IMG/VR virus record: IMGVR_UViG_2548876935_000017
Direction: 5' to 3' (one strand)
Source of the DNA: a virus
Taxonomy: Duplodnaviria > Heunggongvirae > Uroviricota > Caudoviricetes
DNA: 9,690 nt
A model generated the notes under the pieces. It had not been told where the DNA came from. It ran no database searches and saw only the letters and a program-made list of their open reading frames with translations. The position numbers were made by a program, and so were the translations under genes. Below are positions 1,297 to 9,690 of this stretch, one piece after another (the stretch's first letter is position 1; every line of letters begins with the position of its first letter).

Positions 1297-1890
1297 ATGC
1301 TTATTGGCTATGTCCGCGTATCAACAAATGACCAGAACACGGAATTGCAGCGTAATGCGCTGGAGTGTGCAGGATGTGAGCTGATTTTTGAGGATAAAAT
1401 CAGCGGCACTAAGTCCGATCGACCGGGACTAAAAAAACTGCTCAGAACATTATCAGCAGGTGACACTCTGGTAGTCTGGAAGCTGGACAGGCTGGGGCGT
1501 AGTATGCGGCATCTGGTCATTCTGGTTGAGGAACTGCGCGAACGCGGTGTTAATTTTCGCAGCCTGACGGATGCCATTGATACCAGCACGCCGATGGGGC
1601 GTTTTTTCTTTCATGTGATGGGTGCCCTGGCTGAAATGGAGCGAGAACTTATTGTCGAGCGGACACGCGCCGGACTGGAAGCGGCCAGAGCCAAAGGTCG
1701 TATTGGTGGCAGACGTCCGAAACTCACCGCGAGTGAGTGGGAGCAGGCCGGGCGGTTGCTGGCTGCGGGGGAATCTCGTCAACGCGTGGCACTGATTTTT
1801 GATATTGGTCTGTCCACGCTCTATAAAAAATTTCCCTCATCAGTGACAAAGAATAAATTGTGTCATCCCTTAGCCAACCGGGACAAATAG
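1297..1890 (+). CDS. Serine recombinase DNA invertase (Hin/Gin/Pin/Cin family)
   Basis: 197-aa ORF; N-terminus MLIGYVRVSTNDQ with the catalytic Ser in GYVRVSTNDQ; internal GRIGGRRPKL and C-terminal helix-turn-helix …LSTLYKK; strong resemblance to Pin/Gin as I remember them; RBS GGGGA upstream. Confidence 0.9.
   Translation: MLIGYVRVSTNDQNTELQRNALECAGCELIFEDKISGTKSDRPGLKKLLRTLSAGDTLVVWKLDRLGRSMRHLVILVEELRERGVNFRSLTDAIDTSTPMGRFFFHVMGALAEMERELIVERTRAGLEAARAKGRIGGRRPKLTASEWEQAGRLLAAGESRQRVALIFDIGLSTLYKKFPSSVTKNKLCHPLANRDK
1380..1404. promoter_or_regulatory. Perfect 9-bp inverted repeat (GCTGATTTT-N7-AAAATCAGC) inside the invertase 5' coding region; candidate part of a Fis-dependent recombinational enhancer
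   Basis: Read directly from sequence. In Hin/Gin/Cin systems the enhancer lies within the first ~100-200 bp of the invertase gene; this repeat is 84-108 nt into the ORF. Confidence 0.25.
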
Positions 1891-6609: not shown

Positions 6610-7089
6610 ATGATGCTCGCGTTAGGTATGTTTGTTTTTATGCGCCAGACGCTGCCACACCAGACCATGCAGCGTGAATCAGATTATCGCTGGCCGTCAA
6701 ATTCCCGTATCGGTAAACGGGATGCCTTTCAGTTTCTCGGTGTGGGTGAGGAAAACATGACGCTTGCCGGTGTGCTTTATCCCGAACTGACCGGCGGCAA
6801 GCTGACGATGACCACGCTCAGACTGATGGCAGAGGAAGGCCGGGCGTGGCCGTTGCTGGATGGCACCGGCATGATTTACGGCATGTATGTCATCAGCAGG
6901 GTGAGTGAAACAGGGAGTATTTTCTTTGCAGACGGCACACCCCGGAAAATTGATTTTACGCTGTCGCTCACCCGCGTTGATGAATCACTGGCCGCGCTTT
7001 ATGGCGATATCGGTAAACAGGCGGAATCGCTCATCGGTAAGGCTGGCAGTATGGCGACTAAATTCACGGGTATGACGGAGGCGGGATAA
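6610..7089 (+). CDS. U: Tail protein gpU-like
   Basis: 159-aa ORF with RBS GGAGG (6596-6600); its stop overlaps the D start (TAATG). Confidence 0.85.
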   Translation: MMLALGMFVFMRQTLPHQTMQRESDYRWPSNSRIGKRDAFQFLGVGEENMTLAGVLYPELTGGKLTMTTLRLMAEEGRAWPLLDGTGMIYGMYVISRVSETGSIFFADGTPRKIDFTLSLTRVDESLAALYGDIGKQAESLIGKAGSMATKFTGMTEAG

Positions 7090-8252
7090 TGCTGGATGCG
7101 CTGACATTTGATGCAGGCAGTACGCTGACGCCGGATTACATGCTGATGCTCGACAGCAGGGATATTACCGGCAATATCAGCGACCGTCTGATGAGCATGA
7201 CCCTGACGGATAATCGGGGCTTTGAGGCTGACCAGCTTGATATTGAACTGAACGACGCCGACGGGCAGGTCGGGCTACCGATTCGCGGCGCTGTCCTGAC
7301 GGTGTATATCGGCTGGAAAGGTTTTGCCCTGGTATGCAAAGGGAAATTTACCGTTGATGAGGTTGAACACCGGGGCGCGCCGGATGTGGTTACCATCCGC
7401 GCCCGGAGTGCAGATTTTCGCGGGACGCTCAATTCCCGCCGGGAAGGCTCCTGGCATGACACCACGCTCGGTGCGATTGTTGAGGCGATAGCCACCCGTA
7501 ACAGGCTGGAAGCCAGTGTCGCTCCGTCACTGGCCGGAATTAAAATCCCGCACATCGACCAGTCGCAGGAGTCTGATGCAAAATTCCTGACCCGCCTTGC
7601 TGAACGCAACGGCGGTGAGGTGTCGGTAAAAATGGGAAAACTGTTGTTTCTCAAAGCGGGGCAGGGGGTGACGTCAAGCGGTAAAAAAATCCCGCAGATT
7701 ACCATCACCCGCAGCGACGGCGACCGTCATCATTTTGCGATTGCTGACCGTGGAGCCTATACCGGCGTAACGGCAAAGTGGCTTCACACCAAAGACCCGA
7801 AGCCGCAAAAGCAGAAGGTAAAACTGAAACGCAAAAAGAAAGAAAAACACCTGCGCGCACTGGAGCACCCGAAAGCGAAACCAGTCACGCAGAAGAAAGC
7901 GCCAAAAGTACCGGAAGCGCGCGAAGGTGAATACATGGCCGGTGAGGCTGACAACGTTTTTGCCCTGACCACGGTATATGCCACGAAAGCACAGGCCATG
8001 CGTGCCGCTCAGGCGAAGTGGGATAAACTGCAACGGGGCGTTGCGGAGTTCTCCATCAGCCTGGCTACCGGTCGTGCAGATATTTACACGGAAACGCCGG
8101 TCAAAGTGTCAGGCTTTAAGCGTGTCATAGACGAGCAGGACTGGACAATCACTAAGGTGACACATTTTCTGAATAATAGCGGCTTCACGACGTCCCTGGA
8201 GCTTGAGGTCAGGCTTTCTGATGTGGAGTACGAAACAGAAGATTATGAGTGA
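7089..8252 (+). CDS. D: Tail/baseplate protein gpD (late control gene D family)
   Basis: 387-aa ORF translationally coupled to U; size and position match P2 D. Confidence 0.88.
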   Translation: MLDALTFDAGSTLTPDYMLMLDSRDITGNISDRLMSMTLTDNRGFEADQLDIELNDADGQVGLPIRGAVLTVYIGWKGFALVCKGKFTVDEVEHRGAPDVVTIRARSADFRGTLNSRREGSWHDTTLGAIVEAIATRNRLEASVAPSLAGIKIPHIDQSQESDAKFLTRLAERNGGEVSVKMGKLLFLKAGQGVTSSGKKIPQITITRSDGDRHHFAIADRGAYTGVTAKWLHTKDPKPQKQKVKLKRKKKEKHLRALEHPKAKPVTQKKAPKVPEAREGEYMAGEADNVFALTTVYATKAQAMRAAQAKWDKLQRGVAEFSISLATGRADIYTETPVKVSGFKRVIDEQDWTITKVTHFLNNSGFTTSLELEVRLSDVEYETEDYE

Positions 8253-8333
8253 TGTCTTTTGTTTATCTGTTTGTTTTATAAGGATAAATTAACTAAAATG
8301 GCACTATCAACAAAACCGGAAGAGGTGCTCGCG

Positions 8334-8552
8334 ATGTTTCATTGTCCTTTATGCCAGCATGCCGCACATGCGCGTACAAGCCGCTATATCACTGACACGA
8401 CAAAAGAGCGTTATCACCAGTGCCAGAACGTGAATTGCAGCGCCACGTTCATCACTTATGAGTCGGTACAGCGATACATCGTGAAGCCGGGAGAAGTCCA
8501 CGCCGTGAGGCCGCACCCGTTGCCGTCAGGGCAGCAAATTATGTGGATGTGA
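8334..8552 (+). CDS. ogr: Late transcription activator Ogr (zinc-finger)
   Basis: 72-aa product starting MFHCPLCQHAAH… with a Cys-X2-Cys…Cys-X4-Cys motif (CPLC, CQNVNC). The ORF track begins at an upstream ATG (8259); the internal ATG at 8334 gives the canonical 72-aa Ogr. Confidence 0.85.
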   Translation: MFHCPLCQHAAHARTSRYITDTTKERYHQCQNVNCSATFITYESVQRYIVKPGEVHAVRPHPLPSGQQIMWM

Positions 8553-8562
8553 TCACAAAAAT

Positions 8563-8589
8563 AGCCCCTCAGTTGAGGGGCTTATTTAT
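8563..8589. terminator. Intrinsic terminator hairpin after ogr (AGCCCCTC-AGTT-GAGGGGCT, then TATTTAT); A-run on the 5' side makes it potentially bidirectional
   Basis: Read directly from sequence. Confidence 0.6.
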
Positions 8590-8679
8590 GGTCGATGTGG
8601 ACGCTATGTGGACAGTGGTTGACATAAATCCATTTATATCATCAGGTTAGGTGCTTTTTTGTGACACCATCCCTGTCTT

Positions 8680-8706
8680 CCCCCACATGATGTGGGGGTT
8701 TTTTTT
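8680..8706 (+). terminator. Strong rho-independent terminator (CCCCCACAT-G-ATGTGGGGG followed by T8)
   Basis: Read directly from sequence; GC-rich 9-bp stem plus U-tract, 81 bp upstream of the fieF start. Confidence 0.7.
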
Positions 8707-8732
8707 ATCCTCAATTTGCCTGCTGCTTAATG

Positions 8733-8761
8733 CATTGCAGATGATTTGCTTCCGTTATACT
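8733..8761 (+). promoter_or_regulatory. Candidate sigma70 promoter for fieF (-10 TATACT at 8756-8761; weak -35-like TTGCAG at 8735-8740)
   Basis: Hexamer inspection only; spacing is suboptimal. Confidence 0.3.
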
Positions 8762-8787
8762 AGCGTCAGTTGATAGCGGGAGTATTT

Positions 8788-9690
8788 ATGAATCAATCTT
8801 ATGGACGGCTGGTCAGTCGGGCGGCGATTGCTGCGACGGCGATGGCTTCGCTGCTATTGCTGATTAAAATTTTTGCATGGTGGTATACCGGGTCGGTGAG
8901 TATTCTCGCCGCGCTGGTGGATTCGCTGGTGGATATCGGCGCGTCGTTGACGAATTTATTGGTGGTGCGATATTCCCTGCAACCTGCCGACGATAATCAC
9001 TCGTTTGGTCACGGTAAAGCTGAGTCCCTCGCGGCGCTGGCGCAAAGTATGTTTATCTCCGGTTCGGCACTATTCCTGTTTTTGACGGGTATTCAACATC
9101 TGATATCTCCAACACCGATGACAGATCCAGGCGTCGGGGTTATCGTGACAATTGTGGCGCTAATTTGTACGATTATCCTTGTCTCGTTTCAGCGTTGGGT
9201 GGTGCGGCGGACGCAAAGCCAGGCGGTGCGGGCTGATATGCTACATTACCAGTCTGATGTTATGATGAACGGCGCAATTCTGCTGGCGCTGGGGTTGTCC
9301 TGGTACGGCTGGCATCGCGCCGATGCTCTGTTTGCATTGGGAATCGGCATCTATATTTTATATAGCGCGTTACGCATGGGATATGAGGCGGTACAGTCAT
9401 TACTGGATCGCGCATTGCCTGATGAGGAACGGCAAGAAATTATTGATATCGTGACTTCCTGGCCGGGTGTTAGCGGCGCTCACGATCTTCGCACGCGGCA
9501 GTCAGGGCCGACCCGCTTTATTCAGATTCATTTGGAAATGGAAGACTCTCTGCCTTTGGTTCAGGCACATATGGTGGCGGATCAGGTAGAGCAGGCTATT
9601 TTACGGCGTTTTCCGGGATCGGATGTAATTATCCATCAGGACCCCTGTTCCGTCGTACCCAGGGAGGGTAAACGGTCTATGCTTTCATAA
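8788..9690 (+). CDS. fieF: Cation-diffusion-facilitator ferrous iron/zinc efflux transporter FieF (YiiP)
   Basis: 300-aa product from ATG 8788 ([25 protein letters not shown]…), recognised as E. coli FieF/YiiP; multiple hydrophobic helices and a C-terminal cytoplasmic domain. The ORF track's TTG start at 8770 is an upstream extension. Confidence 0.9.

Follow-up and report, generated by a model that had tools for sequence, protein, structure and literature searches.

The probable attR of a WPhi-type prophage between cpxP and fieF of Escherichia coli, with a common core inside the gene for the sRNA CpxQ

The window, i.e. the whole 9,690-nt stretch of DNA analysed here, ends with a P2-type late gene block followed by a host gene. 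The penultimate phage gene is gpD (late control D / tail protein; nt 7089–8252, + strand; Pfam Phage_GPD, E = 2.4e-26), which related lysogens have annotated as 'phage late control D family protein', and the last is ogr, encoding a zinc-finger late-transcription activator (nt 8334–8552, + strand; Pfam Ogr_Delta, E = 1.1e-21) and annotated as ogrK or ogr in E. coli and phage sequences. Sheath and tape measure proteins also gave Pfam matches, and the gene order of the late block is syntenic with annotated lysogens and with phage WPhi. The host gene is fieF (nt 8788–9690, + strand), a CDF-family cation efflux transporter (Pfam Cation_efflux, E = 8.6e-51; ZT_dimer, E = 1.5e-26) that is annotated in all matching genomes. 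Between the end of ogr at nt 8552 and the start of fieF at nt 8788 lies a gap of 235 bp, so that coordinates and Pfam matches agree with an earlier note on this DNA, which had named ogr as the last phage gene and placed fieF 235 bp beyond it.

At the left end of the window, a serine recombinase of the Hin/Gin/Cin type (Resolvase + HTH_7; nt 1297–1890, + strand) adjoins a tail-fibre tip gene (nt 691–1269) and a tail-fibre assembly gene (nt 89–694), both on the minus strand. The whole of nt 89–1890 looks like an invertible host-range cassette, the second recombination site of which would lie to the left of the window. To our knowledge the P2 reference phage has no such invertible cassette. When the window (9.7 kb) was compared with complete E. 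coli genomes the best match was 97.5%, while the host part of the window (fieF and the intergenic DNA of the host) is about 100% E. coli. No counterpart of the prophage, a mosaic variant, is found among complete E. coli assemblies.

Phage and host DNA in the gap were separated by comparison with other genomes. In a megablast search of 5,426 complete E. coli genomes with window nt 8253–8900 as the query, ogr and fieF were contiguous in 690. Alignments to prophage-free E. coli genomes begin at query position 411 (nt 8663 of the window), those to genomes with ogrK elsewhere in the chromosome (e.g. the K-12 remnant) end at query position 390 (nt 8642), and phage genomes (fiAA91-ss, L-413C, P24B2, R18C and others) align up to nt 8709 and no further. 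A four-way alignment of the empty site of strain GS04 (L001), the prophage ends of H9Ecoli (L002), the attP of WPhi (L003) and the window defined a common core of 47 bp, GACACCATCCCTGTCTTCCCCCACATGATGTGGGGGTTTTTTTTATC, at nt 8663–8709 (+ strand), the flanks of which diverge from the very next base on either side. The empty site (attB of GS04) reads …TTTTCCTTGCCATA|core|CTCAATTTGCC… and the WPhi attP reads …GGTGCTTTTTTGT|core|AATCACTTACAT…, the attL of H9Ecoli has the host left flank, the core and the phage right flank, and the window has the phage left flank, the core and the host right flank, which is the P-O-B' order of an attR. This pattern is repeated in five more lysogens (L006–L010, of which L006 is GPEC1035), i.e. 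in six together with H9Ecoli. The core is identical in the empty site of GS04 and in the attP of WPhi, L-413C and FSL SP-004, and in the attL and attR copies of lysogens it is either identical or one base off: the attR of H9Ecoli carries the host C at core position 28, and GPEC1035 and MB06172 show single-base run-length differences.

It is very probable (at about 0.93) that the interval is the attR of a P2-like (Peduovirus) prophage with the integration specificity of WPhi, inserted in the cpxP–fieF intergenic region of E. coli. The junction is an ordinary, already known right-hand prophage end at the published WPhi attB. The attR of a P2-type prophage was also what the earlier note had proposed, and the flanks are indeed the P arm of WPhi on the left and the B' arm of the empty site on the right. 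Aligning the interval with a prophage-free locus, the comparison the earlier note had suggested for finding the junction, places both junction and core at nt 8663–8709 and divides the stretch that it had regarded as host DNA (nt 8590–8787): nt 8590–8662 are absent from prophage-free loci and belong to the phage, while everything from nt 8663 onward is present there and matches the host. The last part, nt 8710–8787 (+ strand), is the host B' arm, native upstream DNA of fieF that is identical to the prophage-free locus and unaltered by the insertion. The window holds neither attL nor an integrase gene, and all that is said here of the opposite end of the prophage is drawn from related genomes; since attL lies outside the window, the state of cpxP and CpxQ in the source strain is read from these relatives. 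In six related lysogens the core occurs twice, with cpxP next to attL. The host gene across the prophage from fieF, which the earlier note had supposed to be cpxP, is cpxP in every related lysogen examined. The integrase encoded next to the attL of H9Ecoli shares 98% identity with WPhi Int and 52% with P2 Int.

The first feature after ogr is a hairpin (hairpin 1; nt 8563–8589, + strand) with a stem at nt 8563–8582 and a T-rich tail reaching nt 8589. It has 8 pairs, 6 of them G–C, and a folding energy of −18 kcal/mol (z = −3.35). Within 700 bp a terminator scan gave three terminator-like sites, where shuffled sequences gave an expectation of 0.5, and both hairpins of the gap lie at the coordinates given in the earlier note. 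In the alignment with P2, hairpin 1 falls, column by column, on the feature annotated as 'rho-independent terminator for ogr transcript and F operon', the U-tract being interrupted in the window (TTATTTAT) where P2 has TTTTTT. Hairpin 1 recurs in the ogrK remnant of K-12, elsewhere in the chromosome. In the P2 record the ogr terminator (24265–24288) corresponds to hairpin 1, while the core (24356–24383) falls in a gap opposite the window; between hairpin 1 and the 27-nt P2 attP core there is neither homology nor positional equivalence. Given the alignment to the P2 ogr terminator, hairpin 1 belongs to the phage and is an intrinsic terminator, that of ogr and the late operon F, not an att core.

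From hairpin 1 to the core runs the P arm of attR (nt 8590–8662), phage DNA that is missing from prophage-free cpxP–fieF loci. Its core-adjacent part (nt 8633–8662) is identical to the WPhi attP and the remainder is near-identical, with a T/C difference at nt 8624; between ogr and the core the window and WPhi also differ by one base in the tail of the ogr terminator. Homology to P2 ends near nt 8642, beyond which the window follows WPhi. Two direct TGTGGAC repeats (nt 8596–8602 and 8607–8613, + strand) are predicted arm-type integrase sites. They align with the 'Int, P arm' protein_bind feature of P2 and match the arm-type consensus of the P2 integrase group, tgTGGaCa (PMC3448106); the motif occurs three times in the window against 1.2 expected, and the copies at 8596/8607 are the sole adjacent pair. 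Between these repeats and the core is an IHF-like site, TATCATCAGGTTA (nt 8637–8649, + strand), which agrees with the IHF consensus WATCARNNNNTTR at 12 of 13 positions and forms part of a segment (nt 8625–8658) that aligns with the IHF protein_bind feature of P2. The consensus match is unspecific (26 matches in the window), so the call, and with it any predicted IHF binding, is based mainly on position. Together, the annotated terminator, Int arm site and IHF site of P2 align to nt 8563–8658 of the window. A promoter scan of nt 8200–8900 gave no + strand site in the stretch from ogr to the core. At nt 8620–8625 there is a perfect −35 hexamer, TTGACA, where WPhi and H9Ecoli have TTGATA; it was rejected as a promoter, as there is no usable −10 at a spacing of 16–18 nt, and is probably meaningless. 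Small ORFs (26–40 aa) across the junction were dismissed as purely mechanical.

The core itself consists of nt 15–58 of the sRNA CpxQ followed by ATC. Within it lies the second hairpin (hairpin 2; nt 8680–8706, + strand), the rho-independent terminator of cpxP/CpxQ, with a stem at nt 8680–8698 and a T8 tract at nt 8699–8706; the 47-nt core folds at −16.5 kcal/mol (z = −2.65). Except for the loop allele in K-12, hairpin 2 is identical to the annotated cpxQ 3' end, which bears out the earlier suggestion that it is the terminator of the host gene upstream of fieF. In the RefSeq annotation of K-12 MG1655 the ncRNA cpxQ (b4716) occupies 4106330–4106387 (58 nt) and is made up of TTTTCCTTGCCATA (14 nt) and core nt 1–44. 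This extent agrees with the published size of 58 nt and with the published seed, in which U7 and C11 pair with nhaB and cfa (PMC6755755, PMC10250213). The insertion lies inside the CpxQ region, as the earlier note had considered possible.

Whether the insertion damages CpxQ can be judged at the other prophage end. CpxQ lies behind cpxP at attL in all six lysogens, as the exact 58-nt sequence in five and one base short in a G run in GPEC1035. The attP carries the identical nt 15–58, attL consequently carries a full CpxQ, and the sRNA remains linked to the cpxP promoter, contrary to what the earlier note had envisaged. The complete 58-nt sequence is also present in a record derived from S. Typhi, STYP1. 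In GPEC1035 both att copies (L006 nt 8386–8442 and 38475–38521) have GGGG instead of GGGGG in the descending stem of the terminator, either through a homopolymer sequencing error or through a real deletion in both copies.

At attR the situation is different. A full 58-nt CpxQ with its 5' seed (UUUUCCUUGCCAUA…) found no match in the window at up to 3 errors. The window carries CpxQ nt 15–58 only (nt 8663–8706), the 14-nt 5' seed being absent, and this piece sits behind ogr and the phage P arm rather than in a cpxP 3' UTR. The terminator hairpin with its U-tail, the Hfq-binding 3' module, is retained. The attR copy is thus a 3' gene fragment and not a cpxQ gene. In a search of Rfam no family named CpxQ was matched, and the sole notable match was Hrs1 ('Hfq-regulated sRNA 1', RF02628), which matches the reverse complement of CpxQ below its gathering score of 56.4: at 44.5 bits for an intact copy (GS04, L001 nt 1472–1544, minus strand) and at 31.8 bits for the truncated copy of the window (nt 8640–8706, minus strand). 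When reversed, the Hrs1 consensus resembles a CpxQ homologue (UUUaCCUUGCCA…CCCUGUCU…terminator), and Hrs1 may be CpxQ modelled on the wrong strand.

One base of the hairpin 2 loop, nt 8690 (core position 28, CpxQ nt 42, + strand; also L014 nt 671), is polymorphic and could be typed in many genomes. The window, GS04 and all phage attP sequences read (WPhi, L-413C, FSL SP-004) have A; K-12 has C, as do about 20% of empty sites, the other 80% or so having A. The possibility that the C in the attR of H9Ecoli is a phage or Salmonella-derived variant was rejected; phage attPs and the attL of STYP1 carry A and K-12 carries C, so C is the host allele. Alleles were counted with lysogen-only queries (E ≤ 1e-15) as exact matches, which excludes 124 attL and 211 attR copies with other mismatches. 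For attL (loop to P' arm) 421 genomes matched, with 297 exact A and 0 exact C, while for attR (P arm to loop) 790 genomes matched, with 425 exact A and 154 exact C. Empty sites, estimated from identity bands, number approximately 3,700 with A and 896 with C. In M217 and 4/2-1 attL has A while attR of the same genome has C. The nominal Fisher p for attL versus attR alleles is 8e-32 but overstates the evidence, since the genomes are clonally related; the real argument is the 0/297 pattern.

Position 28 thus travels with the right-hand flank: its allele comes from the phage at attL and from the host at attR. This puts the crossover to the left of position 28. Judged by these alleles, strand exchange must take place inside nt 8663–8689, the left 27 bp of the core, so that a natural SNP brackets the crossover to 27 bp without experiment. 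A candidate for the overlap within this interval is CCATCCC (nt 8668–8674). In attB the sequence here is AGACA-CCATCCC-TGTCT, a 5-bp inverted repeat with a 7-bp spacer, and an inverted repeat around a short spacer is the geometry expected of core-type sites flanking an overlap. With the crossover to the left of nt 8690, the cpxP/CpxQ terminator of a lysogen is phage-derived and the terminator on the fieF side is the host's original. The physical separation that the earlier note had pictured is still partly correct: the host's own terminator does remain on the fieF side, and cpxP is now served by a copy that the phage supplies. It follows for a C-type host that, once it is lysogenised, the loop base of its functional CpxQ becomes the phage A.

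These observations suggest the following course of events. Strands would be exchanged within the left 27 bp of the core by a tyrosine integrase, which in related lysogens shares 98% identity with WPhi Int, and, as the phage carries its own identical 44-nt 3' segment of CpxQ, the sRNA is rebuilt rather than disrupted. At attL, cpxP keeps a complete CpxQ composed of the host 5' seed and a phage-derived terminator; in the source strain the predicted order is cpxP, 58-nt CpxQ, ATC, AAT(T/C)ACTTACAT…, int. At attR, the host's original terminator stays in front of fieF, where it may insulate that gene from phage late transcription, and a seedless, promoterless 3' fragment of CpxQ is left. Indirect support for Int-dependent recombination at the core may be seen in the fixed segregation of alleles across hundreds of lysogens.

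Other arrangements were considered. In the layout of the earlier note hairpin 1 is the att core, host DNA extends from about nt 8590 onward, and CpxQ is cut from the cpxP promoter. Such a layout has some appeal in that hairpin 1 is a strong terminator-like hairpin straight after the last phage gene, and the att core of P2 itself can be considered terminator-like because the P2 ogr remnant of K-12 abuts the 3' end of cyaR. However, the P arm continues to nt 8662, and the stretch that would have to be host (nt 8590–8662) is missing from empty sites and is almost the same as the WPhi attP. The hairpin matches the annotated ogr terminator of P2 and not the P2 core, it occurs at the unrelated ogrK locus of K-12, and the full CpxQ is still found at attL. 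The alignments have already refuted this layout, and we give it practically no credence. A crossover in or to the right of the hairpin 2 loop, with the terminator palindrome (CCCCCACAT/ATGTGGGGG) providing the inverted core-type integrase sites, is scarcely more credible and very improbable. No inverted repeat of the core is longer than the terminator stem, and tyrosine recombinases require inverted sites around the overlap; yet the halves of the stem are only 1–3 nt apart, too short for a typical overlap of 6–8 bp, and nt 8690 shows the phage allele in 297 of 297 typed attL copies and host-like frequencies at attR. If cleavage occurred inside the stem to the left of nt 8690, this alternative would merge with the preferred reading, in which strands are exchanged in the left 27 bp of the core.

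A separate question is whether the attR fragment is silent. Read-through of the weak ogr terminator could end at the CpxQ terminator and yield an Hfq-binding RNA with a phage 5' end (…GCUUUUUUGU), acting as a decoy or as an sRNA of altered specificity. The fragment does retain the full terminator and U8 tract, i.e. the Hfq-binding module; the interrupted U-tract of the ogr terminator would favour read-through when compared with the unbroken tract of P2; and a U-rich stretch precedes the core, as it does at the native CpxQ 5' end. On the other hand, there is no + strand promoter-like site between ogr and the core, the sequence of the P arm is already accounted for by Int and IHF sites, and the seed used in experiments (U7, C11) is absent from the attR copy. 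We regard an active attR copy as unlikely and prefer the reading of a seedless, promoterless remnant. Equally doubtful is the wider proposal that lysogens express the attP-borne 44-nt CpxQ module and that P2-group integrases systematically target the terminators of Hfq-dependent sRNAs (CyaR, CpxQ). Were it true, the seedless second copy that every lysogen has behind ogr would give rise, in lysogens or upon induction, to a chimeric CpxQ-like RNA with a 5' end set by the phage. Such an RNA could titrate Hfq or direct the regulation of envelope stress to other targets, and the choice of sites by P2-group integrases (CyaR in P2, CpxQ in WPhi) would parallel the targeting of tRNA genes by the 186 group.

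The insertion is common. Among the 5,426 complete E. coli genomes the attL configuration is present in 792–820 and the attR configuration in 690–790, i.e. approximately 13–15% carry it. The spacing between attL and attR is short in some genomes, about 1.9 kb in ECCWS199 (NZ_CP032237.1, nt 4512373–4514334) and about 20 kb in several others; closely placed attL and attR were also seen in SCEC020007, W60 and AR_0162. This suggests internally deleted prophage remnants that have kept both att sites, and such remnants may explain why the attL counts (792–820) exceed the count of ogr–fieF attR junctions (690).

The locus is no novelty as an integration site. The WPhi attB is reportedly described by Karlsson et al. 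(2006). The site in E. coli W is listed as 'cpxP-fieF: Wphi1 (P2)' (PMC3032704), and WPhi and L-413C have been given one common core at MG1655 position 4104392 (PMC3448106). An O157:H7 strain has a 31-kb prophage between cpxP and fieF (PMC7609406), and a 31.7-kb insertion between fieF and cpxP has been described in Salmonella Infantis (bioRxiv 10.64898/2026.03.17.712176). A review of CpxQ stresses the exceptional conservation of the region and is silent on phage integration (PMC9438474). A literature search combining CpxQ with prophage, P2-like and integrase gave no paper linking the att site to CpxQ. Strong conservation is a usual reason for sequences to serve as att sites.

As routine prophage anatomy at a published site, the junction has little weight as a discovery. 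It has practical consequences nonetheless. For annotation pipelines and for readers, the prophage boundary belongs inside cpxQ (nt 8663–8709) and not at the ogr terminator. The CpxQ of the Cpx envelope-stress response is a host/phage chimera, with a terminator supplied by the phage, in about one of every seven complete E. coli genomes, and this chimera, together with the seedless fragment in front of fieF, could confuse sRNA mapping, probe design and the assignment of RNA-seq reads.

Among known systems the closest is WPhi (Peduovirus Wphi), which has the identical core and core-adjacent flank, an otherwise near-identical P arm, and the same chromosomal site (PMC3032704, PMC3448106); Yersinia phage L-413C and the prophage Wphi1 of E. 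coli W have the core of WPhi. The window prophage differs from WPhi in being a mosaic relative that carries a serine invertase as well as an alternative tail-fibre cassette. P2 has the same architecture (ogr, terminator, Int arm repeats, IHF site, core, Cox sites, P' arm, int) and is homologous to the window from ogr to about nt 8642, but its core is shorter and different (27 nt against 47 bp), its integrase is just 52% identical and its host locus differs. The P2 site, too, adjoins an Hfq-dependent sRNA, CyaR/RyeE, at its 3' end: in K-12, cyaR lies directly after the ogrK remnant on the opposite strand (Rfam CyaR_RyeE, 100.7 bits), and the P2 site is listed as 'cyaR RNA' (PMC3032704). Temperate phages and islands that integrate at the 3' ends of tRNA or tmRNA genes (e.g. 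phage 186, HP1, Fels-2/SopEPhi) likewise carry a core that duplicates the 3' part of a highly conserved small RNA gene, and integration of the tRNA type rebuilds the gene at one junction and leaves a 3' fragment at the other (PMC3448106). Here, in contrast, the target is a regulatory sRNA derived from a 3' UTR, together with its terminator, rather than a tRNA, and the integrase belongs to the P2 arm-site group and not to that of 186. [quoted passage not shown]
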